A stretch of DNA of 64,000 bases, taken from the NCBI GenBank assembly GCA_027312225.1, contig DAICXK010000001.1, positions 63,148 through 127,147 on the forward strand, in the 5' to 3' direction. The DNA is from Candidatus Saccharimonadota bacterium. Lineage in GTDB: Bacteria > Patescibacteriota > Saccharimonadia > Saccharimonadales > Saccharimonadaceae. A program made the translations under genes and the position numbers. This document shows positions 5,263 through 20,474 of this stretch, piece by piece. The notes below the pieces were generated by a model. It was not told the DNA's origin. It saw only the letters and a program-made list of their open reading frames with translations, and did no database searches. The stretch's first letter is position 1; each line of letters starts with the position of its first letter.

Positions 5263-5292
5263 TTCCCAACAGAATGGAATGGAGAGGAAAGC

Positions 5293-5568: not shown

Positions 5569-5608
5569 CAACACCACCTCCTTTGGTCATTGAATGATGA
5601 GTAGGATT

Positions 5609-5617
5609 ATTATGGCA
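5609..5617 (-). promoter_or_regulatory. Extended -10 promoter TGCCATAAT
   Basis: The minus strand reads TGCCATAAT about 40 nt upstream of the 5568 start. Same TGnTAnAAT form recurs across the window. Confidence 0.5.
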
Positions 5618-5654
5618 TCATTCGCGCGTTAGCTCAGCAATAAGCAGTTTAGGT

Positions 5655-6254
5655 CTATTTCTTCTTGGTAATCACTTCGTCGATAAGGCCGTATTTCACC
5701 GCCTCCTCGCTGCTCATCCAAAAGTCGCGATCGGCGTCTTTTTCAATCTTAGATAATTTCTGGCCGGTGTTCTTCGCAAGAATTTCGTTCAAGCGTTGCT
5801 TTAGAAAGATGCCTTCTTTTAGTGTGATTTCTTGATCGGTAATTTTACCATGCGTCCCACTTGACGGCTGGTGAATCATAATACGGCTGTTAGGTAACGC
5901 GAAGCGCTTGCCTTTTGTACCGCTTGAGAGCAAGAACGCCCCCATGCTCGCCTGCAACCCAATACCAATCGTCTGTACGTCCGGTGTGATGTACTGAATC
6001 GTGTCGTAAATCGCCAAGCCATCGTACACGCTACCACCTGGACTGTTGATATACAGCTTGATATCTTTCTTTGAATCTTCATAGGCAAGATGGAGAAGCT
6101 GCGCGACAACAATATTGGCCGTATGTTCATTAACATCCTCGCCAAGGAAGATAATCCGCTCGTTCAGAAGACGGCTGTAGATATCAAAGGCGCGTTCGCC
6201 GTCGTGCGTTTTCTCGATCACCGTTGGCACTAGATAACTTGATGGCTTGTTCAT
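5655..6254 (-). CDS. clpP: ATP-dependent Clp protease proteolytic subunit
   Basis: ClpP blocks [28 protein letters not shown]. Start moved to ATG 6254 ([12 protein letters not shown]) because the track start 6281 lies inside the CIRCE/promoter. Confidence 0.93.
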
Positions 6255-6260
6255 ATCTCC

Positions 6261-6290
6261 AGTATAAACAAAAACTAGCACTCACGTCAA
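6261..6290 (-). promoter_or_regulatory. clpP promoter TTGACG-N18-TATACT, then 6 nt to ATG
   Basis: Minus strand: TTGACG (6285-6290) lies in the CIRCE spacer and TATACT at 6261-6266. GGAGAT then ATG at 6254. Confidence 0.55.
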
Positions 6291-6301
6291 TGGAGTGCTA
6301 A
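6275..6301. promoter_or_regulatory. CIRCE-type inverted repeat (HrcA operator consensus) upstream of clpP
   Basis: CTAGCACTC-ACGTCAATG-GAGTGCTAA versus the CIRCE consensus TTAGCACTC-N9-GAGTGCTAA. Overlaps the stop of the upstream ORF and, on the minus strand, is followed by a T-run. Confidence 0.8.
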
Positions 6302-6876
6302 TTCCCTTCGTCTTTTTGTAGTTTCTTGAACAAGTCTGGGAATTCCCTGGCTGCCTTTAGCACCCAGTCCTTGCCCTCCTGCGTTGTGGCGCAGACCCAG
6401 CTGCTGTCGCTACCGTCACCAATTGGAGTATACCGGTATGTTTTGCCATCCACGACTGCTTGACTACCCTCCACCGTAGCGTCGCCATCTCTCACAACAT
6501 CAATGGTACCGATTGCCGCTGCAGCACTGGCATCTGGGCCACTCGGCCGGCAGCCCTCCAGGCTGTCGTACCCTACAAAAGTAATGCTGTACTGTGTCAC
6601 CGTACCGTCAGCGGTCATGTTGGACTCAAAAACACTATAGGGCACGGAGTCGTCATCAAGAGGAACTTCAACGCCCCACTCGGAGAGAGACAGGACAGGT
6701 CCTTGCTGCTGTTGCTCACTTGTTTCACTCACGTCAGGGCTGCTTCGACCCTGTCGGGCTACTACTTCAATGACAAAAATAACAGCGATAAATACAATAA
6801 TACCTATGATAAGAGCCGTCTTGGTGCTTATCCCTTGCTGATACGACCGTCTTGTTGACATCCCCATCCTACCCAT
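6298..6876 (-). CDS. Membrane-anchored protein of unknown function (N-terminal TM helix, acidic extracytoplasmic domain)
   Basis: 192-aa ORF with hydrophobic segment ALIIGIIVFIAVIFVIEVV. Sits between tig and clpP. No recognisable catalytic motif. Confidence 0.55.
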   Translation of the reverse strand: MGRMGMSTRRSYQQGISTKTALIIGIIVFIAVIFVIEVVARQGRSSPDVSETSEQQQQGPVLSLSEWGVEVPLDDDSVPYSVFESNMTADGTVTQYSITFVGYDSLEGCRPSGPDASAAAAIGTIDVVRDGDATVEGSQAVVDGKTYRYTPIGDGSDSSWVCATTQEGKDWVLKAAREFPDLFKKLQKDEGN

Positions 6877-6901
6877 TCTTATTTGTTACTACCTTTATCG
6901 T

Positions 6902-6910
6902 ATCATGGCA
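6902..6910 (-). promoter_or_regulatory. Extended -10-like element TGCCATGAT
   Basis: The minus strand reads TGCCATGAT immediately after the tig terminator and about 25 nt upstream of the 6876 start. Confidence 0.35.
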
Positions 6911-6912
6911 TC

Positions 6913-6939
6913 AAAAATATCGCCTATTTTCGGCGATAT
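6913..6939 (-). terminator. Intrinsic terminator after tig
   Basis: 8-bp stem ATATCGCC/GGCGATAT (6917-6924 with 6932-6939) and a 7-nt loop, followed by a U-run on the minus strand. Confidence 0.7.
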
Positions 6940-6960
6940 TTTCGTCTTGATGAAAGAACT

Positions 6961-8288: not shown

Positions 8289-9569
8289 TTAAGCGACTTG
8301 GCGCTCCTCGCCTGTAGTAAGATTCTTGGCCTTGTACTCGCCGCTTTCAATTTCGTTAGCACCGACAAAGACAATCTCGGTCGCGCCTTTCTTCTCGGCC
8401 ATCTTGATAAGCTTGTCAAATTTTCGGCCTGTCGTGTCCGTCTCGACCGATATACCACGAGACCGCAGGGTCGCCGCTAGCTGCAAGGTCTGCAGCACTG
8501 TATCACCCACCGATGCCACGTACATATCAACAGTAGCTCGAAGGTCCGGCAAGAGGTTGTGACTACGAAGGAACAGCTCGGTTGTCGTAAGGCCTGGAGC
8601 AAAACCAACCGCGCTGACTGGCTCGACACCAAACATACCAACTAGCCCGTCGTAGCGGCCACCACCAAATAGCGAGCGGTTGTTCTCGGGGTCCACATCA
8701 AAGACCTCAAAGACCGTCCCGGTATAATAATCAAGCCCTCGCATGAGCGTCACGTCAAAACGCACCGACGAGACGCCAAGACTACTAAGCATCACAAACA
8801 ATTCGCGCACACGGCCAGCCGCTGCTCCACCCGCAAGTCCCTCAGGGAGCGTCTCGATTGACTCCGCAGAAAATACTGCTTCAAGCCTCGCAACTTTTTC
8901 ATCCGTCTCAAGAATCTCGCGGACCGATGCCACAAACACCTCGGCAGGCAGTTTGTTTTTGCGGTCGATCAGCCGTACAAGCTGACCGGCCTGGACCTCA
9001 TCAAGCCCCAGGTATTGCCGTGTCATCTCTTCGATCAGCTCGCGGCTATTGACACGAATTTCATACATATTAGTACTTGCCCCGAAGGCTTTCATAATCT
9101 CGTCAGCCAGCAGCAACGTCTCGGCTTCGGCCGCCACGTCGTCCGCACCAAACGTATCAACATTGAGTTGCCAGAACTCACGTTCACGTCCACGTTGTGG
9201 CCGTTCGTAACGCATGAAGTTTGCAATGCTATACAGCCTGGCTGGATACGGCAGCTCTTGGCGCCTTGCAGCCACCATACGGCTAACCGTTGGTGTCATC
9301 TCGGGCCGAATTGCCACTGTGCGGTCACCACGATCCGTAAATGCGTATGTCTGCTCCCCAGCCAGCTCGTCACCACTTTTAGCGGCATACACTTCGAGTG
9401 GCTCGAGAAGCGGCGCGCCATATTCTTTGAATCCAAATTGTTCGACTGTTTTCTTCCAGGTTGCAAAGATATAGTTCTGAACAGCCTTATCTTCAGGATA
9501 CCAGTCGCGTGTGCCTTTATATGGTTGGGGGGATAGCGTAGTCATTGGTGTTATTGTATCATTTTTCAT
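8289..9569 (-). CDS. hisS: Histidine--tRNA ligase
   Basis: 426-aa class II aaRS with HisRS blocks (YKGTRDWYP, AIRPEMTPTVSR, YERPQRGREREFWQLNVD, GGGRYDGL). SD GGAGA lies 7 nt upstream of the ATG. Confidence 0.95.
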   Translation of the reverse strand: MKNDTITPMTTLSPQPYKGTRDWYPEDKAVQNYIFATWKKTVEQFGFKEYGAPLLEPLEVYAAKSGDELAGEQTYAFTDRGDRTVAIRPEMTPTVSRMVAARRQELPYPARLYSIANFMRYERPQRGREREFWQLNVDTFGADDVAAEAETLLLADEIMKAFGASTNMYEIRVNSRELIEEMTRQYLGLDEVQAGQLVRLIDRKNKLPAEVFVASVREILETDEKVARLEAVFSAESIETLPEGLAGGAAAGRVRELFVMLSSLGVSSVRFDVTLMRGLDYYTGTVFEVFDVDPENNRSLFGGGRYDGLVGMFGVEPVSAVGFAPGLTTTELFLRSHNLLPDLRATVDMYVASVGDTVLQTLQLAATLRSRGISVETDTTGRKFDKLIKMAEKKGATEIVFVGANEIESGEYKAKNLTTGEERQVA

Positions 9570-9592
9570 TTGTATTCTCCGTTAGTTAATAG

Positions 9593-9618
9593 AATAAAAC
9601 GCCGAAACGAGTTCGGCG
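9593..9618 (-). terminator. Intrinsic terminator inside the hisS leader (candidate attenuator)
   Basis: Minus-strand RNA CGCCGAA-CUCGU-UUCGGCG (7-bp stem, 9600-9618) followed by UUUUAUU (9593-9599). Ends 23 nt before the hisS ATG and lies downstream of a promoter. Confidence 0.7.
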
Positions 9619-9641
9619 TGCATTCTAGACTATCAAGAAGA

Positions 9642-9695
9642 TTACCGGACTCGGTTCGGCGACAGATGTGAATGATGAATCACAAAAGTAATCAT
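9642..9695 (-). CDS. Candidate leader peptide MITFVIHHSHLSPNRVR (three His codons)
   Basis: ATG ATT ACT TTT GTG ATT CAT CAT TCA CAT CTG TCG CCG AAC CGA GTC CGG TAA. The ATG lies 6 nt after a TACAAT -10 box, the spacing used by real leaderless genes here. The last codons form the antiterminator strand. Confidence 0.5.
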   Translation of the reverse strand: MITFVIHHSHLSPNRVR

Positions 9696-9701
9696 ATCTT
9701 T

Positions 9702-9710
9702 ATTGTAGCA
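9702..9710 (-). promoter_or_regulatory. Extended -10 promoter TGCTACAAT of the hisS leader
   Basis: Identical 9-mer to the gatC promoter at 54875-54883. 6 nt to the mini-ORF ATG. Confidence 0.6.
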
Positions 9711-9915
9711 TATTTTCATCAAAAAGTCTATGTACCGTTCATCCGAAAGCTTAACTCCTCGCTCTCGATTGCAGCACTGTACATATTTCCAACGTACCGT
9801 TGATCGGGTGGTAGGTCTTTACCCGCAGGATGGTTGATTCCCAGGGTTGACCGCAAACTTGCAACCACGTCACGCAACATCACTTCATTTCGTAGTATCT
9901 CAGATGGGGCTATAT

Positions 9916-10443
9916 CTAGCGCGTCAAGACATTTCGGCGCACCCATTCATAGAGGATAATACCGCTTGCCACCCCGACATTGACCGATCGGGTGCTGCCG
10001 AATTGTGGAATTGCAACCATAGATTGGCTCGCGGCAATCATTTCAGGGCTGAGGCCCGGTCCTTCGCCGCCAAACACTACTACACAGTCCCGTGGCAACT
10101 CTGCATCAGGCAGGCTTACCGCGCCAGGTTGATTGTCAATCGCAATAATGCGTCGCTCGCCCATTGCCGTGACAAATTCCTCGATTGTCGCATGATAATA
10201 AACGTGGAGGTATTTGTCCGTTGCCATCGCCCCGCGCTTGTTCCATTGACGACGGCCGATAACATGCACCGCCGCCACGTTGAACGCGTTAGCATTACGC
10301 ACGATCGTTCCCATATTAAAGTCTCTCGTCAAGTTTTCGACCGCAATCTCAAGGGCATGACGTGACCTATCGAGGTCTACGATGATGTCCTCTTCACTCC
10401 AGCCCTTATACTTGTCAACGACGTTTCTGGTGTCCTGTTGCAT
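9916..10443 (-). CDS. SpoU/TrmH-family RNA 2'-O-methyltransferase
   Basis: 175-aa ORF with SPOUT motifs (NMGTIVRNANAF, VFGGEGPGLS, IPQFGSTRSVNVGVASGIILYE). Confidence 0.8.
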   Translation of the reverse strand: MQQDTRNVVDKYKGWSEEDIIVDLDRSRHALEIAVENLTRDFNMGTIVRNANAFNVAAVHVIGRRQWNKRGAMATDKYLHVYYHATIEEFVTAMGERRIIAIDNQPGAVSLPDAELPRDCVVVFGGEGPGLSPEMIAASQSMVAIPQFGSTRSVNVGVASGIILYEWVRRNVLTR

Positions 10444-10449
10444 AGTTCC

Positions 10450-10459
10450 ATTGTAAACT
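10450..10459. promoter_or_regulatory. Overlapping divergent -10 boxes in a 22-bp intergenic spacer
   Basis: Minus strand: TACAAT (10450-10455), then 6 nt to ATG 10443. Plus strand: TAAACT (10454-10459), then 6 nt to ATG 10466. Confidence 0.5.
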
Positions 10460-10465
10460 AAGTGT

Positions 10466-11047
10466 ATGAAACTCTTGTCTGATCAAATCGACGAGCGCGA
10501 GCTAGCAATCATTTTGCGCGAGCTAGAGAAGACATTGATGGCAGACATCAAAGGTGACGTTGTTGAATTTGGCTGCTACGTTGGCACGACGAGCGTCCCT
10601 GTCGGCAAACGGTTAATGTCAACCGATAAAAAGCTGTTTGTCTACGACTCGTTCGAGGGCCTACCCGAGAAAACACATCAAGACGAAAGTCCCACAGGAA
10701 CACAATTTGTAGCCGGCGAACTAACTGCTAGCAAAAAACAACTAATCAAGAACTTCAAACAAGCTGGTGTGCCGTTGCCTATTATCACAAAAGAATGGTT
10801 CTCTAATGTTACGCCAGACCAGATACCAGAAACGATCGCCTTTGCGTTCCTTGATGGTGATTATTATCGCTCTGTCCTTGACTCACTAAGACTCATATGG
10901 AATCGTTTGTCGCCAGAAGCAGTCATTATTATCGATGATTACGCAAACGAAGCTCTGCCAGGCGCAGCTAAAGCCACTGACGAATGGCTGCGTAAGCATC
11001 CGGCTACAATACGTATTGAACATTCACTCGCAATTATCTCAAGGTAA
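10466..11047 (+). CDS. TylF/MycF-like class I SAM-dependent O-methyltransferase
   Basis: 193-aa ORF with GDVVEFGCYVGTTS (SAM-binding loop), FVYDSFEGLPE, LDGDYY and IIIDDY. This pattern is typical of the macrocin-O-methyltransferase family. Confidence 0.6.
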   Translation: MKLLSDQIDERELAIILRELEKTLMADIKGDVVEFGCYVGTTSVPVGKRLMSTDKKLFVYDSFEGLPEKTHQDESPTGTQFVAGELTASKKQLIKNFKQAGVPLPIITKEWFSNVTPDQIPETIAFAFLDGDYYRSVLDSLRLIWNRLSPEAVIIIDDYANEALPGAAKATDEWLRKHPATIRIEHSLAIISR

Positions 11048-11081
11048 CCACCTAGTGATTCACTGGACTCTTTGCGTATGA

Positions 11082-12086
11082 TTAGCGTGTAATTATTGCT
11101 ACTGTCGCGTCGTCATTATCTTTCCAATCCTCAAATGGCCATCGAATACTGGGATTAATCAATGACGTTAGGATAGCGTGTCGTGAAAGCTCTCGATGAA
11201 GCGGAACGTCGAGCGCACGAGCATAGGGCTGTACGATGTCGTTCCATATCTCCCAATCAAAACGCTCACCTGTAAATATGTCAGGATCGTCAAGCTCGGG
11301 ACTAATGACTTCGTTATAGTCCACAAGCTGCTTTTTACGCAGTTCAGCACCCGGTTGACCCGCCAAAAGTTTATGGATATTTACGACAAAGTTGCCGTCA
11401 TGCTCCCTGATGCTATCGAGTAGCAGGTTATCATCATGTGCTGCTAAAAGCTGACCACCGTACAACAACTCATTGCCACGCACCCAGTTTCCTAAAACAC
11501 CATCACTACCAATGTATACTTCTTTTTCAGGAGCATATGGAACGATCGCATGAAAATCAGCCATAGTACGGGGCGGTATACGACGAGTGGGTGTTCCCAT
11601 ATAGTTTGCTGGATCTCCCCAGCCCACCCACCGATTAATCTGCTGCTCGGCAATCACTTCCTCTTCATTAGTTGTCGTATCGTATGTCCAGATACCCGTA
11701 TCACCCACGTTCGTTACCTCAAGCAAACCGTTGCGGACCCGAAGTAATGCACCCATACATAGGCTTGCCTCGGGGTTTGCGGCCACCACCTCACCAGCCC
11801 GACGCATGATATCAGCACCTGAAATATCACCGTCATGCACGCGGTATTCGCGTCGTACCACATCTGCCGCGGTCAATGCCGCCTCCAGTGGTGATCCCAT
11901 GTCTTTTGTGCCACCCGCGCCATCAAATACACCGATAACACCGTATTCCGGTAGCACCACGGCCGCATCTTCGCCTACCGCTACAACTTCATTATCCACC
12001 TCAGATGCATCACCGTTAATTGGCCGTCCTACAAGAGTGTACTGTTCGCCGCTCGCAAATGCACCTTCTTTCGTAAGAAACTTCAT
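11082..12086 (-). CDS. PP2C/SpoIIE-like metal-dependent phosphatase (about 334 aa, with a long insertion)
   Basis: PP2C-like motifs GVFDGAGG, VTNVGDTG, YIGSDGV and C-terminal DNDDATVAI. Start placed at ATG 12086 (MKFLTKEG), 7 nt after the upstream stop. Last gene of a 4-gene operon. Confidence 0.6.
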   Translation of the reverse strand: MKFLTKEGAFASGEQYTLVGRPINGDASEVDNEVVAVGEDAAVVLPEYGVIGVFDGAGGTKDMGSPLEAALTAADVVRREYRVHDGDISGADIMRRAGEVVAANPEASLCMGALLRVRNGLLEVTNVGDTGIWTYDTTTNEEEVIAEQQINRWVGWGDPANYMGTPTRRIPPRTMADFHAIVPYAPEKEVYIGSDGVLGNWVRGNELLYGGQLLAAHDDNLLLDSIREHDGNFVVNIHKLLAGQPGAELRKKQLVDYNEVISPELDDPDIFTGERFDWEIWNDIVQPYARALDVPLHRELSRHAILTSLINPSIRWPFEDWKDNDDATVAIITR

Positions 12087-12093
12087 ATACCTA

Positions 12094-13002
12094 TTATACT
12101 TCCTGTGATCCTCTTGGGATCTCAATTATTTCTCCATCCCAATCTTGCCAGATATATACCGGAGCTCTCGTCGGAGCATTCAGGGTACTAGCCAGTCGTA
12201 TGCGCCGGCCGTCATGCAAGGAGCGCTCTGACGATGTACCACGCTTGCCGTTCAGCACATGGGCGTGCCCAGACACCACTGTTTTGTTGGTGTGATAGAC
12301 AGGCTCGGTACTGGTCGCGAGCTTCATGCTAAACCACTGCGGCGGGCGATCATAGAAAAGTCCTTCATCCATCTCTTTGCTGACCTCATTAAGATAATTC
12401 CGCTGCACCTCCCACGAGACGTTCGGCAACACACCAGCGTGGGTGGCAATAAACGCGTCTGTCTCAAAATACGGCGTTGCACTGGCGAGAATAGCGAGGT
12501 GCCCGGCCCTGGCCATGCGCCGCCGAAGCTCCTTGGCTGTCGTATGATCTCGACGAGAAGGATCCATACCGTACGAAACTAAAACATTCCTTTCGATAGC
12601 AGTCGCCGAGTCATTGCCCAGCCACTCCTTGGTCAGCGACTCTCTAAAACCGGGATCATTAGCACTACTACTGGCATGAAACAGCCACTCATGGTTGGCC
12701 ATTGTGACTACCGCCCGACCACCTAGATTTTTTATAATATCCAGCGTCTTAAAAACACCTTTTTCCGGATCGTTGATAACCCCTTTCCTATCAAGAATAT
12801 CGCCCAAAAAGACAAACCCTATATCCGGATCATCATAATATCGGTCGACGATTTCTCCCAATACCTCATGTTCGCCATGAATGTCAGGCACAACAACGTG
12901 ACGATCAGCATACTGATCACGCACCAGGTGAAGTTTTGGTTGCGGTCTTTGAGGGAGTACCTCGAAATGTGAAGGTGCGATTCGCTCAAGCGCGAGACTC
13001 AT
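12094..13002 (-). CDS. PPP/ApaH-type calcineurin-like metallophosphoesterase (about 302 aa)
   Basis: Motifs VPDIHGE (DxH), FLGDILDRKG (GDxxDR), MANHEW (GNHE), THAG, SGHAHV (GHxH). GGAGG lies 6 nt upstream of ATG 13002. Overlaps the upstream HD gene by 17 nt. Confidence 0.75.
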   Translation of the reverse strand: MSLALERIAPSHFEVLPQRPQPKLHLVRDQYADRHVVVPDIHGEHEVLGEIVDRYYDDPDIGFVFLGDILDRKGVINDPEKGVFKTLDIIKNLGGRAVVTMANHEWLFHASSSANDPGFRESLTKEWLGNDSATAIERNVLVSYGMDPSRRDHTTAKELRRRMARAGHLAILASATPYFETDAFIATHAGVLPNVSWEVQRNYLNEVSKEMDEGLFYDRPPQWFSMKLATSTEPVYHTNKTVVSGHAHVLNGKRGTSSERSLHDGRRIRLASTLNAPTRAPVYIWQDWDGEIIEIPRGSQEV

Positions 13003-13714
13003 TACCACCCTCCATTTCAATAGTCGAGCCTTCAACCGCCTTATGAGGAACGCCTTCCCGTATGATAGTTTGAATACCCGAGTATTTCACGGCATACGCA
13101 GCCAACGTTGCATATGATTGGGTTTGCATCGCAGACTCAAACCCAAGTAATCCTCCAGCTAAGTGTTCAGTTGTCGGCCGATCAAACGGCAGCCTAACCA
13201 ACCGAGCAGCGATCGCCCTCCCCATGTACCCCGCCCGCATTGCCGTCGTATTATACCCTACATACTCAATGGCTCTGAACTTGTCGCCGAGTGTTTCGTC
13301 TTCTTTATCCAGGACCCTCCATACAGTGTCAGAAAGCTCTTCTCCTTCGTATTTACCAAGTAAATCTTCAGCAATCAGCCTGAAACTTACCTGTTCACGC
13401 CTATCGTCCTCTGCCGTCTTAAAGGGCAACGGGATATCCCCTTCAATCGCTTCACCCCAATCGTGGGTCATGGCGGTAACCAGCAGAGTGTTGGCGTCTT
13501 CTTCCGCAAGACCCTCTGCAGCACTAAAGCGCCCGGCCAGGCGGTGGGTATGCGGCATATGCCGCAGATTATTGACATCATCACCCAGAACATCAACCCA
13601 TGTCTGGTTGTCGATATCTACTGGCTTGAAATCAGCGAATCGTATACCGCGATCAAGTGTCTGACCGTAGTCGCTTCTCGAAAATATATGATGCAGCTGT
13701 TCTGGAGATTTCAT
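12986..13714 (-). CDS. HD-domain phosphohydrolase, YfbR-like 5'-(deoxy)nucleotidase family
   Basis: H...HD...D signature (HTHRLA; MTHDWGEAIEGDIPLPFKT), matching the HD_3/YfbR pattern HDxxExxxGDxxxP.K. The start overlaps the upstream stop as ATGA. Confidence 0.7.
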   Translation of the reverse strand: MKSPEQLHHIFSRSDYGQTLDRGIRFADFKPVDIDNQTWVDVLGDDVNNLRHMPHTHRLAGRFSAAEGLAEEDANTLLVTAMTHDWGEAIEGDIPLPFKTAEDDRREQVSFRLIAEDLLGKYEGEELSDTVWRVLDKEDETLGDKFRAIEYVGYNTTAMRAGYMGRAIAARLVRLPFDRPTTEHLAGGLLGFESAMQTQSYATLAAYAVKYSGIQTIIREGVPHKAVEGSTIEMEGGNESRA

Positions 13715-15102
13715 GCCGCGTTCCTTACTTCGGGCGCTGCTGGATACTCCCGAATCGTCAGCCCTGGCTCAAACTGCTCCCACGTTCTCTCGGCCTGAGG
13801 GCGTGGCTCGTACCACTTACCATCATAAAATGCCCTGTAACCATCGTTGTGATCAATCGCTACTTGCTCGACATGAAACGCACCGTTGCCTTCGGTGTAG
13901 TGGACGACGCCGATACCGTTTTGCCAGTTTTCTTGATGAGGAACAATCTCCCCATGCGTATCTACAGCATTATGATAACTAGGTACAGCCCCTTGTGTGT
14001 TTGCCAGGCAGCCATTACTGAATGCTTGAATCACCCTGCCGCCAAGTGTTCGCATTTCTCGCTCCATGCGGTGAGTATGATGGAACATGACCGACTGATC
14101 GGGAAATGCCTTTAGGTACTCCTGCGCAGTCGAACCGTTGTTCTTTGACTTGTCGCCATGAAAGGTGATCAGGCGATCATTAACGCGGTACATTGCTGCC
14201 GCATAGCCCGCGATATAATCTATATCGAGTGCTTTTAGTCCAAGTGCACGCTCGATTGACAACAGCGGATACCCTTCTGGGTCATCAGCCGGACGCACCT
14301 CTGCCAGATGTGGCGCGTGCTTCAGCCAAAATTTATCCCATCGCTCGACATGGTTTGACGATACCATTGGAATCTCTGCATTTTGGTTGTCGGCACGAAG
14401 TTGCGCCATTAGGCGATGTAATCCAAGGACGCTGCGGCGAACACTATGCGGACCCATGAAATGAGTTGAATCTGCATCAAAACGTCCAAGTTCTGGGAGG
14501 TCAAGCTCATCACCACCCGACACAATAACATCTGGTTGAATATCCTTTGTGATTTGGAGCGCGACGTCAATCGCGCGAGGGTCGTGCACTGGGGTAAAGC
14601 TGCCGTCACGATGCTCACGAAGTGCGTACTGTATATCCGGTAGGTCAACTAATACCTTCTCGTGTCGTACTTTTCGTGGCTTCGACTGCGTTTTTCTAAT
14701 ATTCACTGGTGGTGGAGTAATAATGAATTCCGAAAGGTCAACATCTCGAGTTTGGGGTCGTATATCATAGCGACGAGCCCGACTGGGAACAACTTCGATA
14801 TCATTGACTGTGTGAGATTTACCATCCTCACCAACCTCAATACGTTTTTTCTTTACCGCCGTCTCCCAATAAGAAAAACTTGCTCGCGGGACGCTGAGCA
14901 AGTCAAACGGTGTCAGGCCTTGGGCATTCATATCGTCAGCCAAAAGCTGCAGCTCATCAAGAGGGTTATCGATATCGGGAGCATCGTCAAGCGGAGTAAA
15001 GTCAAAGTAATGTGCTAGTAGACTCGCCGTTATCGCTCGTTTTTCTGGCTGATCCTCTTGGGATGTTTCTGTTGTTGTTGGCATGCGCTCTCGGTTTGAC
15101 AT
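13711..15102 (-). CDS. Calcineurin-like metallophosphoesterase with about 150-aa N-terminal extension (463 aa)
   Basis: Motifs GGDELD (GDxxD), SSNHVERW (GNHE), FHGD, FHHTHR (GHxH). Motif I reads DLPDIQ...VHD rather than a clean DxH. First gene of the operon. GGGAGA SD. Confidence 0.65.
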   Translation of the reverse strand: MSNRERMPTTTETSQEDQPEKRAITASLLAHYFDFTPLDDAPDIDNPLDELQLLADDMNAQGLTPFDLLSVPRASFSYWETAVKKKRIEVGEDGKSHTVNDIEVVPSRARRYDIRPQTRDVDLSEFIITPPPVNIRKTQSKPRKVRHEKVLVDLPDIQYALREHRDGSFTPVHDPRAIDVALQITKDIQPDVIVSGGDELDLPELGRFDADSTHFMGPHSVRRSVLGLHRLMAQLRADNQNAEIPMVSSNHVERWDKFWLKHAPHLAEVRPADDPEGYPLLSIERALGLKALDIDYIAGYAAAMYRVNDRLITFHGDKSKNNGSTAQEYLKAFPDQSVMFHHTHRMEREMRTLGGRVIQAFSNGCLANTQGAVPSYHNAVDTHGEIVPHQENWQNGIGVVHYTEGNGAFHVEQVAIDHNDGYRAFYDGKWYEPRPQAERTWEQFEPGLTIREYPAAPEVRNAA

Positions 15103-15176
15103 ATTGCTCTTTCTCCCTTTCCTCTAGCTTCACTGCTTACTATGGCGATGATGTCCTTAAACATCAGCCACTTGTT

Positions 15177-15202
15177 GTTGACTCAGGAGGCACTGAGTCA
15201 AC
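15177..15202. promoter_or_regulatory. Perfect 10-bp inverted repeat GTTGACTCAG-N6-CTGAGTCAAC (candidate operator)
   Basis: Lies centrally in the 190-bp divergent region between the phosphoesterase operon and the wHTH-Nudix gene. A TTGACTCAG half-site recurs at 16040-16048. Confidence 0.6.
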
Positions 15203-15292
15203 CCGTGCTGACTCGATTATGCTTGCCTTAACACCTCGGAAAAGAGTATCCTCGTAGTAGATACGTAAGAAACTATCATAGATAGAGGAGTT

Positions 15293-16024
15293 ATGGACCA
15301 CCGGTTTGACCTACACCATATCCAACGCGGCATTATCTTAAGCCTCGTCACAAGCTCCCCCCTGACATTCACTGAATTACAGCCGCCTCGCATTCCAAAC
15401 AACACCTTTTCGTACCATCTGAAAAAGCTTATCGAAAACGGCTATATCGAGCATGCCCCGTCGCAATCTGGATATATCCCCACTCGCAAAGCGCTGAAAT
15501 TGGTGGCAGTTAACGGAGACCAAAAGAGTCGCGTACGGTCGCCGGCACTTATCACGATGTTTTACATTACCAATGATGAAGGTGAAGTTTTATTACTTAA
15601 CCGTAACATTGACCCGTTCCAAGGGTGGTACAGCCTACCGTCAGGATCCGTGCATTTTGGCGAATCGCTCGACGAAGCAGCTCAGCGCGAGCTGTTCGAG
15701 AAAACTGGCATTAAGGCGACAAAAGAGCTGTACTCAATCGGCATCCTTGACTTCCAGTATCGCGAGGAGGGCACGGACGATTTGTTCGTTCATGCGCTGG
15801 CGTTCCTGTACAGCTTCCATTACTCCGATAAGAAAATGGCCATCAACGACAAACCAACTCGTTTTGGACAGTTATCGTGGTCGCGTCTCGGACGACAACA
15901 TATTCTCCCCGAAGTCCTGGCCGCAAAAGAGATCGCCCAAAGTAGTGAATTTATCAAAAAATCACTCCAGTTTGTCGAGCCGGCACACATGCCAGTGCTC
16001 ACCCTTTCGGACAGCCAGAAATAA
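15293..16024 (+). CDS. Winged-HTH plus Nudix-domain protein (candidate ligand-sensing regulator)
   Basis: The N-terminal ~70 aa look like an ArsR/MarR-type wHTH (FTELQPPRIPNNTFSYHLKKLIENGYIE). Nudix box GSVHFGESLDEAAQRELFEKTGI has the second Glu of the EE pair replaced by Lys. Confidence 0.7.
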   Translation: MDHRFDLHHIQRGIILSLVTSSPLTFTELQPPRIPNNTFSYHLKKLIENGYIEHAPSQSGYIPTRKALKLVAVNGDQKSRVRSPALITMFYITNDEGEVLLLNRNIDPFQGWYSLPSGSVHFGESLDEAAQRELFEKTGIKATKELYSIGILDFQYREEGTDDLFVHALAFLYSFHYSDKKMAINDKPTRFGQLSWSRLGRQHILPEVLAAKEIAQSSEFIKKSLQFVEPAHMPVLTLSDSQK

Positions 16025-16045
16025 CCTAGTCCAACTCTATTGACT

Positions 16046-16069
16046 CAGTCGTATATGACTGCTTTTTTT
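16046..16069 (+). terminator. Weak intrinsic terminator after the wHTH-Nudix gene
   Basis: CAGTC-GTATAT-GACTG hairpin (5 bp) followed by C and TTTTTTT. Confidence 0.45.
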
Positions 16070-16095
16070 ATATCCCTATGTGATGCTAAGGATGC

Positions 16096-16743
16096 ATGAA
16101 CGAACGAGGTCCACAACATACTATCTATCTTGATTTGGACGGCGTGGTCTTTCCCTATTGGCGTAACCATGGCCATGGCGAGCGTCTACGGGGAGCCGGG
16201 AGCGACGAGCTGCTGCAGGCAAACCTCATGCAGGAAGGCCTTAAAAGGAAGTGGATCGACGGTCGGGAGTTTTACTACCCTGCCATTACGAAGCGGCTTG
16301 GTGTAATTGCTGCACGAGGAGCAGAGATTATCGGGTCATCGTCCCGGTCTCTCGATTTGTTTCTCCATTATCCGTCCGTCCGAGACGATCTTGGCGATGT
16401 CGAGCGGTTCCTCAGTATCGACACCTTTGAACCAGGGAGAATCGACCATAAAGCAGAGGCAGTGGTAAAGAACTGGCAAGGGGTTATTGACCTTAGTAAC
16501 GAGCGACGTGGCTGGGAGCGACAGCCATCCTTACGCATTGATTACCCCACCAGCAAGCCCCCCGGCAGTCGAGCGGTGTGGATTGACGACCATGCTATGC
16601 CGAAGATTCTTGCAAGTTCACCATCAGAGTACGGAAAAGAAGCCCTGTCTATATCATCGCTAAAAATTATTAATCCACTCGGTACCGTTGGGCTGACGAT
16701 GGCGCAGCTGGACGAAGCCGAGGGTTTTCTGTTTAACGAATAG
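16096..16743 (+). CDS. HAD-superfamily-like hydrolase (215 aa)
   Basis: Motif I IYLDLDGVV (DxDxV), candidate motif II IIGSSSR and motif IV VWIDDH. The remainder is not recognisable. Confidence 0.45.
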   Translation: MNERGPQHTIYLDLDGVVFPYWRNHGHGERLRGAGSDELLQANLMQEGLKRKWIDGREFYYPAITKRLGVIAARGAEIIGSSSRSLDLFLHYPSVRDDLGDVERFLSIDTFEPGRIDHKAEAVVKNWQGVIDLSNERRGWERQPSLRIDYPTSKPPGSRAVWIDDHAMPKILASSPSEYGKEALSISSLKIINPLGTVGLTMAQLDEAEGFLFNE

Positions 16744-16749
16744 TCAATC

Positions 16750-17169
16750 ATGGAAAAATATGTCCCGCGAGAAATAGCAAAAGAACGAGCAACCCTGTCT
16801 CTTCCTGAATGTGTCGCCCGGGCAGACGAACTGATTGAAAAAAATGGCATCTGCCTTATGCTCATGGACATCATCGGTTCGCGAAGGTTTTTTCACGATT
16901 CGCAGTTTCGTAGAGATTTTTTAGTCCTGACAAGTGACCTTAGCTATTTGTTCGAGGAATATCTGCCCGAACACAGCCTAATTGTCGCCGACAGACCAGA
17001 GCAAGGATTCAATATCCTATTAGGTGACGGAGTAGCAGCGGGCATCAACAGCAGCGTAGTCATCCCGCTTGCCGTCGAATATACAGAAACGTTTTATCCG
17101 CACATTCCCTTCCGCTACGGAGTCGCCGAGGATGGCTGGGACAGGCCAAACATTGCGCTTTTAAAGTAA
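16750..17169 (+). CDS. Small protein with SatD-like / nucleotide-cyclase-like motifs (139 aa)
   Basis: LMLMDIIGSRRF ... FNILLGDGVAAGI resembles the SatD pattern (GDIIxSR ... ITLGDEFQG) and the class III cyclase D-I-x-G / GD metal-site pattern. Starts 6 nt after the upstream stop. Confidence 0.3.
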   Translation: MEKYVPREIAKERATLSLPECVARADELIEKNGICLMLMDIIGSRRFFHDSQFRRDFLVLTSDLSYLFEEYLPEHSLIVADRPEQGFNILLGDGVAAGINSSVVIPLAVEYTETFYPHIPFRYGVAEDGWDRPNIALLK

Positions 17170-17172
17170 AAA

Positions 17173-17198
17173 AACAAGACCAAGATGGTCTTGTTTTT
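17173..17198 (+). terminator. Intrinsic terminator (usable in both directions)
   Basis: AACAAGACC-AAGAT-GGTCTTGTT stem, followed by a T-run and preceded by an A-run. Sits between the 16750 gene and tRNA-Leu. Confidence 0.8.
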
Positions 17199-17202
17199 AC
17201 TT

Positions 17203-17289
17203 TGGTACAGATGAGAGGACTTGAACCTCCACGCCCCGAAGGGCACTAGCACCTGAAGCTAGCGCGTCTACCAATTCCGCCACATCTGC
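17203..17289 (-). tRNA. tRNA-Leu (anticodon CAG), CCA encoded
   Basis: The minus strand reads GCAGATGTGGCGGAATTGGTAGACGCGCTAGCTTCAGGTGCTAGTGCCCTTCGGGGCGTGGAGGTTCAAGTCCTCTCATCTGTACCA. Cloverleaf with a long variable arm and anticodon loop CTTCAGGTG. Confidence 0.93.
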
Positions 17290-17310
17290 ATACGACACAT
17301 GTGCTATGTT

Positions 17311-17351: not shown

Positions 17352-18935
17352 CTAGGAACGTAACTGACGAGCCAGTACCTTCAGGTCGGCTGACTGCTTG
17401 ACACCTGGGTTGAGTGTCGTGAACGGGTCAAATACTTTACGAATCGATGCATTGAGATCCGTCACCGCCTCATCCAATTGTGGATAGCCAGCAAATGCAT
17501 TAATACGCCCTTCGGCCTGCGCGCCTGCGATCGTTCCACTTGTCTTGTGTACAAGGGCAGCATACTCGGTGGCAAGCTTGAAGATCTTTTGTTTATCCGA
17601 GACTTTTTTGAAATGAACAGTTGGATATGTCGAGACAATGCCAGTCAGTGCATTGATCTTTAATGGCAACTTGACGTGCAGCCTCTCAGCAAGCGCCGTC
17701 GCCTCAGTCACAAACTCCTCAAGGCGCTCTGTAGGAATATACGCACCATCGCACATAAAGACCGGTGACTCATCAACACGTAGCGGCAATACAACTGTTT
17801 GTTCAACATCGCGCACCGCATAAAGGTCATCAAGTCGTGAATCGTCTGATGTATACAGTTTCGCGTCCCGTTTCGCGAGTAATTTTTGCGCTTTTTTCAA
17901 TTTGCGGGCACGTATCTTGTTACTAAAATCGTCAAAACTTGCGTACACCAACCCGGCAAAGATATCACTCTCTTTGTCAAAGACAAATCGCTTGCCTCTT
18001 GCGCGCGCTTCTTCGTAATACGCACCATCGATGACCTCAAGAACCGTTGGGTCAAGCTGGCGCAAGATATCGGTGATATCGCGGGCCTCTTCGGCGGTTT
18101 GGCATACTGCGACAAGAATCGACTCGTCGTCGCTATAGAAACTCGCCCCTAGAACAACTTCGGAAATAATTCCCAGTGTGCCCTGGCTACCAATAAAGAG
18201 AGGCGTGAGGTCAAATGAACCATCCTTGTTTTTTACCTTATCAATACGATATCCGAGGTTGTCATAATCAGAGGAGAGTGACGCGACAAGCTCAGCGCTA
18301 TCATCAATAATGCCATCAATCTGACGATAAATCTCGCCCTCAAGCGTCTGTTCGCCTTTTTTACGGCTCAACTCGCGTTTGCTAATGCGACCTGTCTCCA
18401 TCAAATCACCGTTTGCCAGCACAACTTCCATACGCTCGATACTATCGGCCACTGTCCCGTGCTTGCCTGAGACACGGCCGACACTGCCTGCTGCAATTGC
18501 GCCGCCAACTGTCATATCCGGCATGTCCGGTGTGTAGGCTCCGACCGTAAGGCCGTGCCATTTTAGTGCTTCGTGAAGCGTCCTTAGTGAAACGCCGGGC
18601 TGAACATGAACAATTTTGTTCTTATCCTTCGTTGAAACGTAGAGAATAGAGTTAAGATGACGAGAGAGGTCAAGGAGAATTCCAGATCCGATTGCACCAC
18701 CAGTCGTATCAGTACCAAGTCCGCGAGGGGTCAGGCTAAGCGTATGCCCTTTCTCAGCAAGCTGCCACGAAAATCGTGCGACCTTCCGAATGTCGTTCGT
18801 AACTTTCGGATAAACAACGATTTCTGGTGTTATTTCAAACACACTCTCATCTCGTGCGTATGCCGCACGAAGAGACGTCAAATTACTCACTTCCCCCAGT
18901 AGATGCTCGTTTAGGTACTGTGCTACTTTACTCAT
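17352..18935 (-). CDS. FAD-linked oxidase (GlcD / D-lactate dehydrogenase-like, FAD_binding_4 family)
   Basis: 527-aa ORF. The N-terminal FAD-binding PCMH pattern reads PRGLGTDTTGGAIGSGILLDLSRHLN ... VQPGV. The C-terminal oxidase domain is present. Confidence 0.75.
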   Translation of the reverse strand: MSKVAQYLNEHLLGEVSNLTSLRAAYARDESVFEITPEIVVYPKVTNDIRKVARFSWQLAEKGHTLSLTPRGLGTDTTGGAIGSGILLDLSRHLNSILYVSTKDKNKIVHVQPGVSLRTLHEALKWHGLTVGAYTPDMPDMTVGGAIAAGSVGRVSGKHGTVADSIERMEVVLANGDLMETGRISKRELSRKKGEQTLEGEIYRQIDGIIDDSAELVASLSSDYDNLGYRIDKVKNKDGSFDLTPLFIGSQGTLGIISEVVLGASFYSDDESILVAVCQTAEEARDITDILRQLDPTVLEVIDGAYYEEARARGKRFVFDKESDIFAGLVYASFDDFSNKIRARKLKKAQKLLAKRDAKLYTSDDSRLDDLYAVRDVEQTVVLPLRVDESPVFMCDGAYIPTERLEEFVTEATALAERLHVKLPLKINALTGIVSTYPTVHFKKVSDKQKIFKLATEYAALVHKTSGTIAGAQAEGRINAFAGYPQLDEAVTDLNASIRKVFDPFTTLNPGVKQSADLKVLARQLRS

Positions 18936-19052: not shown

Positions 19053-19137
19053 GCGCGAGTGGTGGAATTGGTAGACACGCTAGCCTTAGGAGCTAGTGCC
19101 TCCGGGCGTGAAGGTTCAAGTCCTTTCTCGCGTACCA
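19053..19137 (+). tRNA. tRNA-Leu (anticodon UAG), CCA encoded
   Basis: GCGCGAGTGGTGGAATTGGTAGACACGCTAGCCTTAGGAGCTAGTGCCTCCGGGCGTGAAGGTTCAAGTCCTTTCTCGCGTACCA. Long variable arm and anticodon loop CCTTAGGAG. Confidence 0.93.
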
Positions 19138-19167: not shown

Positions 19168-19202
19168 GCTTTAGCATTTAAAGTGCTTTGTTGATTAATG
19201 TA

Positions 19203-19231
19203 TTGCATTTTTATAATTCTTATGCTATAAT
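19203..19231 (+). promoter_or_regulatory. Promoter TTGCAT-N17-(TGC)TATAAT, 7 nt to ATG
   Basis: TTGCAT at 19203-19208 and TGCTATAAT at 19223-19231, with ATG at 19239. Leaderless architecture. Confidence 0.65.
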
Positions 19232-19238
19232 ATATATT

Positions 19239-19814
19239 ATGAACACCTGGGAGACCTACAACAAAGCCCGCTACGTTGATGCAGTCAAGATGACTCGCTT
19301 TGCCCTTACGCAGTTAGGTTCAAGTAGCCGTATCTATACGGATATCCGACAACCGCTTGTCAGCCGGACCGACACGGCCCTAAGCCACCATATTGTCGGC
19401 TCATACAAAGGTGCCAATCCAGACTGGACGGACGAACATAAGGCCGATGATATTATCCATTTTGGAGTCCGCGACACCCAGTCGCTTCTCTTCCCGTATC
19501 TTGCAAAACACCCTTCTAAAGAGGCTGCTCTGAGCTTTCTTCACCACGAACGCACAATGCAACACCTTGCACTTGCAGCCCTGCAAACCGAAGACAGCTT
19601 TGAGGGTCTTGTGCGTCGCGTTGAACGGGACCAGCACATCAATCCGGATACCCCTCACTTGACACTACCAACTAGCGTTACACCTCAGTCAAAAGGTTGC
19701 CCCGCCGCCGCTGTTGGTCAAGACCGAAAACCTACCAAAGAGTTTATTGATCTTAGCCTGTTGAGTGGTGAGGTGCTCATTGAAGCACTCGACCATAATG
19801 GACGGTTCTCATAA
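19239..19814 (+). CDS. Hypothetical protein (about 191 aa)
   Basis: ORF trimmed to ATG 19239 (MNTWETYNK) because the track start lies within the promoter. No recognisable motifs. Confidence 0.5.
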   Translation: MNTWETYNKARYVDAVKMTRFALTQLGSSSRIYTDIRQPLVSRTDTALSHHIVGSYKGANPDWTDEHKADDIIHFGVRDTQSLLFPYLAKHPSKEAALSFLHHERTMQHLALAALQTEDSFEGLVRRVERDQHINPDTPHLTLPTSVTPQSKGCPAAAVGQDRKPTKEFIDLSLLSGEVLIEALDHNGRFS

Positions 19815-19829
19815 GAGGATAGATAGGCT

Positions 19830-20474
19830 ATGCCTGTATCACCCGAGCAGCTCCACCGCATTGTGCAATCCGAAACCGAGCATTTTTGCGACGCGCAACA
19901 AGCACTGGAACAGACAAGAGAATCAGACGGTCGCACCTTTGACGATCCTCGCCTCCATGCACGCATGGCAAACTGCGGCATCGCCTCAGCACTCATCCAG
20001 CATAATCTACGTGTACATCATAATATAGCAACCGCGCGCCTATTTGGCCGTCCGCCGACAGCGCCCTACTTTCCTAGCGGCAATGAGTTTGGACACGTCA
20101 TTCTTCGATCCGACAACACGCTCATCGACCCGACATACGGACAAATCTTTTCGTTCGTCGGCATCCATCCGCTATCGCCTGTCAAAGGGTTCTCCTATCC
20201 TGATAATCTTGCATTGACGGTTGATACGACAGACCCTGAGGCATCCCTTGAATCACTTGTGGATGCCCTCACGGGTGCTGCGCAATTAGAAATAAGCCCC
20301 TACCTTCAGAGCCGTGCGCCACTACGCCACAAGGGACGTCGTACTCTGCAGTCGGTCATCTACGATATCTACAATCCTGGTTATTACGCTCCCTACGAAT
20401 TAGAGACCCTCCATCCGTCATTTGACCGCGTCCAAGCCCTGATTCACGTCTCTGATCAGCTGCGTGAACAATAA
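19830..20474 (+). CDS. Transglutaminase-like / papain-fold cysteine hydrolase candidate (214 aa)
   Basis: Cys-His-Asp arrangement typical of the transglutaminase core: ANCGIASALI ... FGHVILRSDNTLIDPTYGQ. GAGGA SD upstream. Confidence 0.45.
   Translation: MPVSPEQLHRIVQSETEHFCDAQQALEQTRESDGRTFDDPRLHARMANCGIASALIQHNLRVHHNIATARLFGRPPTAPYFPSGNEFGHVILRSDNTLIDPTYGQIFSFVGIHPLSPVKGFSYPDNLALTVDTTDPEASLESLVDALTGAAQLEISPYLQSRAPLRHKGRRTLQSVIYDIYNPGYYAPYELETLHPSFDRVQALIHVSDQLREQ

Follow-up and report, generated by a model that had tools for sequence, protein, structure and literature searches.

A candidate DNA and deoxynucleotide dismantling cassette under a divergent wHTH-Nudix regulator in Saccharibacteria

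Regulators of the NrtR family combine a Nudix-fold effector domain with a winged helix, act on palindromic operators at the promoters they control and are often autoregulated (PMC2330246, PMC6800001). Helix-turn-helix (HTH)-Nudix or WYL regulators are also assigned to the ADP-ribosylglycohydrolase (ARG)-centred systems predicted in other phyla (Iyer et al. 2022, PMC9503650). Phage T5 has a pre-early pair made up of A1, a metallophosphatase that digests host DNA, and Dmp, a phosphatase of 5′-deoxynucleoside monophosphates (5′-dNMPs) (bioRxiv 10.64898/2026.04.02.716235). Among the metallophosphoesterases (MPEs) of actinophages, Bxb1 gp47, which the phage requires to replicate its DNA, shows limited activity as an exonuclease and is predicted to resemble Mre11 and PolD-DP1 in structure (PMC11795197); A10ZJ24 Gp48 acts as a phosphodiesterase and damages host DNA (PMC12287305). 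At 11082-17169 of the DNA analysed here (64,000 nt of the Candidatus Saccharimonadota bacterium contig DAICXK010000001.1, hereafter the window) lies a cassette of seven genes arranged around a divergently transcribed winged helix-turn-helix (wHTH)-Nudix regulator. Its regulatory logic is closest to NrtR, its pattern as a system is closest to the ARG-centred systems and its closest functional analogue is the T5 pair; no description of the cassette was found in the literature. Saccharibacteria live as epibiotic parasites on Actinobacteria. Unable to make nucleotides, they rely on their hosts for them, as do other Patescibacteria. To our knowledge, how Patescibacteria process acquired nucleic acids is largely unknown. 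The reading of the locus developed below, to which we give an even chance, is that of a ligand-gated cassette of cytoplasmic phosphoesterases which would dismantle DNA and deoxynucleotides.

All seven open reading frames (ORFs) were judged to be genuine genes, and these genes, the perfect palindrome and the adjoining tRNA-Leu gene were found as the first-pass annotation had described them. On the minus strand are the genes for a 463-aa MPE (MPE463, 13711-15102), an HD phosphohydrolase (12986-13714, 242 aa), a PPP-type MPE (PPP, 12094-13002; 302 aa counted from the ATG start, with an alternative TTG at 13035) and a PP2C-like protein (11082-12086; 334 aa counted from the ATG start, with an alternative TTG at 12125). 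The plus strand carries the wHTH-Nudix regulator (15293-16024, 243 aa), a HAD-like phosphatase (16096-16743, 215 aa) and orf139 (16750-17169, 139 aa). A divergent control region of 190 bp (15103-15292) lies between the MPE and wHTH-Nudix genes. The tight junctions claimed earlier read as stated: the stop of MPE463 and the start of HD share an ATGA, HD and PPP overlap by 17 nt with a GGAGG site ahead of the PPP ATG at 13002, and PPP is 7 nt from the PP2C-like gene. This geometry suggests translational coupling of the minus-strand genes. A check for membrane helices and signal-like hydrophobic segments found none in any of the seven proteins, in agreement with the earlier statement that the block holds no signal peptide. 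The idea of a secreted nuclease was rejected because the proteins have neither signal nor membrane segments.

The regulator and its operator are the constant element of these cassettes and were found in 12 loci, where PPP, HD, PP2C-like and HAD-like genes join them in varying combinations. These contexts are a small sample, 12 loci for the regulator and 7 independent ones for PPP, and one biased by what the look-ups returned. The complete set of seven genes occurs only in the window and in L001, L007 and L010, which form a narrow clade, and the arrangement is mosaic elsewhere; a scan of genome contigs gave a single near-identical relative. Across a divergent promoter, the regulator faces MPE-HD-PPP in L023, and MPE-HD followed by CorA-like and EEP genes in L014 and L016. 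In L002 and L004 it shares its side with a GT4 gene and faces an MPE followed by unrelated genes (luciferase-like, beta-lactamase-like). In the remaining contexts a large protein takes the first position, giving a 991- or 996-aa protein followed by PPP in L024 and L027 (with a HAD-like gene beside the regulator in L024), a 954-aa protein followed by PPP and a PP2C-like gene in L025, and a 948-aa protein followed by a RimK-like ATP-grasp gene, PPP and a PP2C-like gene in L026. The L026 ATP-grasp gene (9061-10011), between the large first gene and PPP, encodes a RimK-family ligase (TIGR00768, 4e-50). The large proteins of 950-1000 aa had no Pfam match, and their C-terminal part carries MPE motifs and matches phrog_284 ('exonuclease') at 1.3e-8. 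Compared by hhalign, they showed no significant match to the MPE463 or HD family and are therefore not claimed as fusions or homologues of these. By its motifs the first regulated gene is always predicted to be MPE-type, either of the MPE463 family or a large protein with C-terminal MPE motifs, and PPP lies downstream of an MPE-type first gene in every context examined.

The earlier proposal of a functionally linked module under a divergent wHTH-Nudix protein is thus supported by the regulator and operator shared by 12 loci and by the recurrence of PPP, HD, PP2C-like and HAD-like genes in different lineages. The search for co-occurrence in other genomes that had been suggested gave a divided answer, as the full set is confined to one narrow clade and mosaic subsets recur elsewhere. 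We consider it highly unlikely that the genes share no pathway at all and are house-cleaning hydrolases piled up in a recombination-prone spot by tRNA genes, with only the regulator and MPE linked. Such an accumulation would suit the restriction of the full set to one clade, the retention of only regulator and MPE in L002 and L004, the PP2C-like homologue standing alone in L008 and the apparent splitting of the PP2C-like gene in L010. However, the four minus-strand genes overlap or nearly abut, PPP keeps its place after an MPE-type gene, the PPP-PP2C-like pair is seen again in the distant L025 and L026, and the whole block forms one recombination unit.

The Nudix fold of the regulator, proposed in the first-pass annotation, was recovered (PF00293 at 2.1e-15), and its N-terminus matches HTH_20, HTH_24 and HTH_5 in Pfam, all below threshold. 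The wHTH occupies residues ~10-75 and the Nudix domain follows at ~88-200. In an alignment of the 12 regulators (46-96% identity) the recognition segment PNNTFSYHLKKL of the wHTH is invariant, as is a Nudix box of the form G-x5-E-x7-RELxEK in which Lys (K137) stands for the second Glu of the canonical EE pair. Because this invariant Lys replaces a catalytic Glu, sensing suits the domain better than a role as the sixth hydrolase for which it had been counted, and it is probably no longer an efficient hydrolase. The ratio of non-synonymous to synonymous substitution (dN/dS) of the regulator is 0.03-0.04. Its Nudix domain has as best NCBIfam match the GDP-mannose mannosyl hydrolase (2.9e-7, well under the family cutoff), the NtrR model of the same collection aligns to the Nudix part only (3.5e-4, cutoff 400 bits), and in PADLOC the Nudix box matches PDC-S07 weakly (2.4e-4). 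A tblastn search of plasmids with the regulator found generic Nudix domains only, and a search of IMG/VR found nothing.

The predicted operator (15177-15215) is composed of a perfect palindrome, GTTGACTCAG-N6-CTGAGTCAAC, at 15177-15202 and a third half-site, GCTGACTCG, at 15207-15215, with the core TGACTCA-N8-TGAGTCA. The palindrome is single in the window, where none would be expected by chance, and no further full operator site was found in the 64 kb. Its arms are invariant between the window, L001, L007 and L010 while the spacer varies. In each of the 12 loci the Nudix-divergent intergenic region contains 2-4 copies of GACTCA/TGAGTC, typically arranged as GAGTCAG-N8/9-TTGACTCA-N8-TGAGTCAA. 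These hexamers occur at 12.35 per kb in the divergent regions against 0.36 elsewhere in the same sequences (34-fold, Poisson P = 3e-34). The enrichment, and the keeping of the arms while the spacer changes, amount to a phylogenetic footprint, by which TGACTCA-N8-TGAGTCA is assigned as the conserved putative operator of the wHTH-Nudix protein. An Rfam search matched only the two tRNAs, so the control region appears to hold no riboswitch. Like NrtR, the protein is a one-component Nudix and wHTH regulator with a degenerate catalytic box and a palindromic promoter operator, the latter predicted here; unlike NrtR, its wHTH is N-terminal and its Nudix domain C-terminal, and its regulon consists of phosphoesterases, not of NAD synthesis genes. 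By analogy with NrtR and its ligand ADP-ribose, the Nudix domain may bind a ligand of the nucleoside-diphosphate-X type. The protein would then repress both divergent transcription units when free of ligand and release them on ligand binding. The locus offers a concrete regulon in which a defined predicted operator is paired with a Nudix-sensor transcription factor of new design, its wHTH preceding the Nudix domain.

Two further elements lie close to the operator and the regulator gene. A GTGGCTG box at ~15155-15165 (minus-strand reading AAGTGGCTGATG) is placed 3-10 nt beyond the operator on the MPE side, and is also present in L001, L002, L004, L007, L010, L014, L024 and L027 despite diverged surroundings; a promoter element is one possible role, and a site bound by a second factor another. 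Just past the regulator stop and ahead of the HAD-like gene, a further operator-like half-site TTGACTCAG at 16041-16061 overlaps a terminator-like hairpin and T run, and is conserved in L001 (1203-1209), L007 (6037-6043) and L010 (5637-5643). This half-site and hairpin could form an attenuator or a second binding site that separates the regulator from the HAD-like gene and orf139.

MPE463 had no Pfam match. Profiles place it in the phage MPE family PHROG 20266/221 (phrog_20266 at 4.6e-47 over residues 123-432, phrog_221 at 8.5e-23), an assignment that replaces the generic calcineurin-like label given to it before; the metallophosphoesterase fold itself stands, since the PHROG profiles agree with the AlphaFold2 (AF2) model and its Foldseek matches. 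The catalytic domain spans residues ~125-440 and follows an extension of ~120 residues (helices, then a four-strand meander) that is particular to the Saccharibacteria proteins. Residues D156, D201, N250-H251, H315, H342 and H344 are invariant in 49 homologues. The AF2 model (pLDDT 85) has as best match in BFVD the metallophosphatase of Microbacterium phage ISF9 (7e-31, TM 0.62), and its top PDB matches, all weak (E ~1e-4), are Mre11, Rv0805, purple acid phosphatase, SbcD and LpxH. The MPE alignment profile searched against PDB gave noise only, and single-sequence PDB searches with MPE463, PPP, the PP2C-like protein, HD and orf139 gave nothing significant. In tblastn against GenBank phages MPE463 matched 362 records, nearly all from actinophages. 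It shares with the actinophage MPEs (PHROG 20266/221, Bxb1 gp47, A10ZJ24 Gp48) the family, by profile and by predicted structure, and the MPE motifs other than the altered motif I; it differs from them in its low identity to the cluster A proteins, its N-terminal extension, its D-x-Q motif, its cellular genome and its dedicated regulator.

From this family membership MPE463 is predicted to be exonuclease-like. The members of PHROG 20266/221 that have been studied act on DNA, and on these grounds the entry substrate of the cassette would be DNA or oligonucleotides, not second messengers. For the suggestion that the module erases signalling nucleotides no specific evidence was found. Only the large MPE has phage relatives. 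A phage-borne cassette was rejected: IMG/VR lacks the regulator, and its matches to PPP are only distant NinI-like phosphatases. From this absence of the regulator and PPP the cassette is judged to be cellular. A role as recombination directionality factor (RDF), as for Bxb1 gp47, was likewise rejected because no integrase was found near the MPE; a serine integrase in particular is lacking near the cassette. Should the dismantling reading hold, a cellular function would be found for a widespread and poorly understood group of phage metallophosphoesterases.

Relatives of MPE463 were also seen in phage-like settings. At 4147-6952 of the phage-like contig L006 (43.7 kb), a 355-aa homologue with 46% identity has an amidase endolysin on one side and on the other an exonuclease subunit of DNA polymerase (phrog_403, 1e-57), and the same phage encodes an RNA ligase and a PNKP. 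Clavibacter phage CN1A has a similar layout, with a lysis cassette followed by the MPE, and an RNA ligase and PseT nearby. The D-x-Q form of motif I is common to the MPE463 family and the unrelated-looking proteins of 950-1000 aa (L024 7026-10001, L025 7091-9955).

The HD protein alone stays below the Pfam thresholds (YfbR-like 21.1 bits against 25.9, HD 19.2 against 22, HD_3 15.4 against 22.5). Its family comprises 363 representative relatives, proteins of ~270 aa, which match HD_3 and YfbR-like; some also carry a fused nucleotidyltransferase or kinase domain. Searched as a profile, the family matches 1xx7 at 6e-6, HDDC2 at 4.5e-5 and YfbR at 1e-3, and also OxsA and DatZ. Its signature HDWGEAIvGD aligns with HDASEVLTGD of YfbR, HDMAECIVGD of HDDC2 and HDLGEAIITD of 1xx7, and H52, H84, D85, E88 and D93 are conserved. 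The YfbR-like call of the first-pass annotation is borne out by these profile matches with the HDxxExxxGD motif. The window protein thus keeps the signature of the YfbR/HDDC2/OxsA clade together with the upstream His and Arg, but forms a distinct family under the Pfam gathering thresholds; tblastn with it against phages found no match. A (deoxy)nucleoside monophosphate phosphatase is the probable assignment.

A second fold is found in the same slot. In L039, the operon consists of a 351-aa MPE, NT5C and PPP, the latter at 43% identity being the most distant PPP homologue examined. Its MPE matches the same PHROGs at 3.6e-34 and has a canonical D-x-H (DIH) motif I. NT5C is a 5′(3′)-deoxyribonucleotidase of the HAD superfamily (PF06941; phrog_2643) and occupies the slot of the HD gene of the window, which we interpret as non-orthologous displacement at the middle position. 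The deoxynucleotidase slot is thus filled by two unrelated folds in different genomes. Since both folds have the same known chemistry, the gene context argues well for dephosphorylation of deoxynucleoside monophosphates as the middle step, and therefore the upstream MPE is probably the source of these. The YfbR/HDDC2 signature of HD and the placing of NT5C between the same MPE and PPP families bear out the view, taken earlier, of a module directed at nucleotides or nucleic acids.

This arrangement recalls the T5 pair, in which an MPE-fold enzyme that degrades DNA is also partnered by a dNMP phosphatase, here MPE463 with its coupled YfbR-type HD, or with NT5C in L039. Unlike A1 and Dmp, the cassette is chromosomal, controlled by a putative repressor and extended by PPP, PP2C and HAD genes. 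Its proteins had no detectable sequence similarity to those of T5 (phage matches of the MPE are almost all to actinophages and HD had none), and the resemblance is a functional analogy only. A more specific version, in which a domesticated phage toolkit for demolition of host DNA, combining a nuclease of the actinophage MPE type with a dNMP phosphatase and accessory phosphatases for ends, is held under a nucleotide-sensing repressor, converts host DNA to nucleosides on demand and is traded as a unit, is speculative and we regard it as unlikely.

In the proposed dismantling scheme, release of the repressor would allow MPE463 to cut DNA or oligonucleotides to (deoxy)nucleoside monophosphates, as suggested by its phage relatives and by A1 and Dmp, and HD would take the phosphate off these to give nucleosides. 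As a guess, PPP, with the HAD-like and PP2C-fold proteins where present, may remove blocking or residual phosphates, and candidate targets of these accessory phosphatases are 3′-phosphate or 2′,3′-cyclic ends and 3′-nucleotides. As to purpose, our slight preference is for the processing of scavenged DNA or for nucleotide-pool control, because the organism depends on imported nucleotides. If true, the scheme would identify a small-molecule signal that switches on nucleic-acid catabolism in an obligate epibiont.

A number of points weigh against the dismantling scheme. The PPP and PP2C folds are classically those of protein phosphatases, HD enzymes of the YfbR clade include triphosphohydrolases (OxsA, DatZ), and MPE folds also cover cyclic nucleoside monophosphate phosphodiesterases, LpxH and protein phosphatases. 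Motif I of MPE463 is D-x-Q, not the canonical D-x-H, and Q158 is nearly invariant among the 49 sequences. The similarity of MPE463 to Mre11 and SbcD is weak (E ~1e-4, TM ~0.3), and the Bxb1 gp47-type MPE/RDF genes of cluster A mycobacteriophages match it at ~25% identity. The Nudix regulator is missing from L039. The genes that follow the MPE in L002 and L004 are unrelated, and there the GT4 glycosyltransferase gene overlaps the end of the regulator gene and is co-transcribed with it. The part given to PPP and PP2C in the scheme is a guess. Finally, no nucleoside transporter, kinase or phosphorylase is linked to the cassette, which weakens a salvage role.

Because of the unrelated genes and the co-transcribed glycosyltransferase, an envelope role fits L002 and L004 as well as dismantling does. 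Such a module would either dephosphorylate proteins, with PPP and PP2C as Ser/Thr/Tyr protein phosphatases, or use a sensor of nucleoside-diphosphate sugars to direct the MPE and HAD-like proteins at sugar-nucleotide or polyprenyl-phosphate intermediates. We find it very doubtful for the cassette at large, even though the classical function of the PPP and PP2C families, the GDP-mannose mannosyl hydrolase match of the Nudix domain, the overlapping GT4 gene, the LpxH among the structural neighbours of the MPE, the TylF-like methyltransferase gene lying partly within the recombined tract (see below) and the possibility of sugar binding by NrtR-family sensors such as AraR (PMC4666351) all speak for it. 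A kinase is linked in none of the loci, the seven proteins are free of membrane and signal segments, the signal from HD and the NT5C deoxynucleotidase does not fit, and MPE463 is far closer to replication-associated phage MPEs than to LpxH.

The PPP/ApaH-type fold claimed for the third minus-strand gene stands. PPP matches the NinI-like phrog_246 at 2e-10 and phrog_8238 at 5e-7, PF00149 is on record for many of its 43 homologues, and weak profile matches to ApaH and Rhilph2 were obtained (E = 0.02-0.05). Its motifs are DxHG, GDxxDRKG, ANHE and GHAH. In this it resembles the group of lambda phosphatase (NinI), ApaH, PrpE and Clostridium thermocellum Pnkp (CthPnkp), which has DxHG, GDxxDRG, GNHE and GHxH, but it carries in addition a family-specific C-terminal segment.

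The PP2C-like call is reasonably supported by motifs and, more tentatively, by a predicted structure, though not by a family profile: the window protein matched none of the Pfam and NCBIfam models (PP2C, PP2C_2, SpoIIE), its alignment profile gave only noise against PDB, and tblastn against phages found nothing. The motifs ED, FDGAGG, DG(V/I)LGNW and DDAT are invariant in 7 homologues down to 37% identity, and supply the metal-binding residues E39-D40, D55-G56-A57-G58-G59, D195-G196 and D325-D326, with an insertion of ~120 residues ahead of the last motif. The AF2 model is of low confidence (mean pLDDT 54, residues 196-305 unmodelled), and in Foldseek all of its top 50 PDB matches are PP2C/PPM enzymes (best tPphA, 7e-7). 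One orthologue is named PP2C family phosphatase by NCBI, a homologue with 28% identity lies directly after PPP in L025, and the L026 counterpart matches Stp1_PP2C weakly (6.8e-5, well under the cutoff). In L010, the strain closest to the window by its flanks, the gene was called as two ORFs (9571-10573; 135 and 190 aa) and matched by tblastn in two pieces; it may be frameshifted or a pseudogene, or the assembly may be wrong here.

The HAD-like call is likewise reasonably supported. Motifs I-IV are intact and invariant across 5 sequences (D13-x-D15-G-V, the DLDGV motif; S81-83, SSS; K119; D164-D165), but the Pfam gathering score is missed, HAD_SAK_2 giving E = 0.005 in the window and 0.0014 over the same profile span in the L024 orthologue (17.6 and 19.4 bits against a cutoff of 27.5). 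The L024 gene is also downstream of the regulator, with 55% identity. A rival reading is repair of RNA or DNA ends, with PPP acting like the phosphatase domain of CthPnkp, the HAD-like protein like T4 PNKP/HAD_SAK and the MPE trimming damaged termini before ligation; the targets would be 2′,3′-cyclic, 3′-phosphate or 2′-phosphate ends. In its favour, phrog_8238 is annotated as an RNA ligase, of which PPP covers the metallophosphoesterase region, and PPP also matches NinI/lambda phosphatase, an enzyme that shares 2′,3′-cyclic phosphodiesterase activity with CthPnkp (PMC2190708). Moreover, the sole family resemblance of the HAD-like protein is to HAD_SAK_2, the 'Swiss Army Knife RNA repair' HAD, and Mre11-like folds process DNA ends. 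However, a ligase, polynucleotide kinase, RtcB or Hen1 occurs in none of the 12 loci, the displacement of HD by NT5C speaks for free deoxynucleotides rather than ends of polymers, and the HAD_SAK_2 matches are under threshold. Together these leave end repair quite improbable.

The last gene, orf139, is confined to the clade of the window, with 90-95% identity in L001, L007 and L010 and a dN/dS of 0.08-0.12. It had been labelled as SatD/nucleotide-cyclase-like. This label was a resemblance of motifs alone and could be given no support: no match was found in Pfam (up to E = 10 with four orthologues), PHROG, NCBIfam, PADLOC or PDB sequences.

Comparison with the close relatives reveals a recombination tract of ~6.6 kb (10690-17300) which takes in the seven genes and the 3′ part of a TylF-like methyltransferase gene; on the other side tRNA-Leu marks its end. 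When L010 is compared, nucleotide identity is 96.5-99% in the flanks, with a synonymous divergence (dS) of 0.015-0.17, and 69-89% in the tract (dS 0.42-2.2). Against L007 and L001 the relationship is reversed, with flanks at 61-74% (dS saturated) and the tract at 76-94% (dS 0.22-0.92). From this reversal we conclude that the cassette has been exchanged between lineages by recombination, independently of its flanks, and the sharp boundaries mean that such cassettes move between Saccharibacteria lineages. Across the seven genes dN/dS is 0.013-0.21, with the MPE (0.013-0.024) and the regulator most constrained, from which all seven are taken to be functional genes under purifying selection and not chance ORFs. 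The TylF-like gene (10466-11047) holds the left boundary of the tract: compared with L010, its 5′ part has ~97% nucleotide identity and its 3′ part (10690-11047) ~72%, and its protein is 86% identical overall where those of neighbouring genes are 98-99%.

Lateral exchange of this kind raises the possibility of an anti-phage or conflict cassette, in which a nucleotide signal such as ADP-ribose would free the repressor and DNA and deoxynucleotides would be destroyed (abortive infection, depletion) or, as an alternative action, phage-imposed ADP-ribose or phosphate modifications would be stripped. In our estimate this is unlikely, in either form. A constant sensor transcription factor with swapped effector modules is a hallmark of the ARG-centred HTH-Nudix systems (PMC9503650, section 3.8), and the exchange of the block independently of its flanks, the phage relationship of the MPE, toxin-antitoxin genes (ParE, PIN) near the L026 copy and the adjoining tRNA genes are in keeping with it. 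The same ARG-centred systems share with the cassette an HTH-Nudix negative regulator and a mosaic operon of calcineurin-like, HD and HAD phosphatases; however, ADP-ribosylglycohydrolase, Macro, NADAR, chaperones and REase effectors are found in none of the 12 loci, and neither a classical effector nor a toxin is present. Moreover, purifying selection is very strong and diversifying change was not seen, the position near histidyl-tRNA synthetase (HisRS) is broadly syntenic across distant Saccharibacteria, and IMG/VR lacks the regulator and PPP. PADLOC-DB v2 gave no match for six of the proteins and only the weak PDC-S07 match for the Nudix protein, which agrees with the earlier expectation that this is not a named defence system. 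Were it a defence system instead, it would be one previously unlisted. What speaks for a metabolic or salvage role is the wide vertical presence of the cassette in Saccharibacteria, the strength of purifying selection and the putative repressor that would sense a small molecule; what speaks for a role in conflict is mosaicism, lateral exchange and the phage ancestry of the MPE.

The base composition of the cassette is like that of the remainder of the window, and identical proteins are on record under the locus tags B7Y92_00285, B7Y92_00295 and B7Y92_00300 (Candidatus Saccharibacteria bacterium 32-50-13). Between orf139 and tRNA-Leu(CAG) (17203-17289, minus strand) is a bidirectional terminator-like hairpin (17170-17198) with a 13-bp stem and A and T runs on each side. 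The variable cassette abuts this first tRNA-Leu gene, which together with a second, tRNA-Leu(TAG) (19053-19137, plus strand), brackets a FAD-linked oxidase gene (17352-18935). Between tRNA-Leu(TAG) and an RsmD-like gene are two adjacent ORFs with no assigned function (19188-19814 and 19830-20474; 208 and 214 aa), which are 94-95% identical in L010 compared with 98-99% for the surrounding housekeeping genes. In L004, from a distant member of the Saccharibacteria, two HisRS-like genes (1-1309 and 14941-16206), ~14 kb apart and each ~28% identical to the HisRS of the window, flank the regulator-MPE pair.

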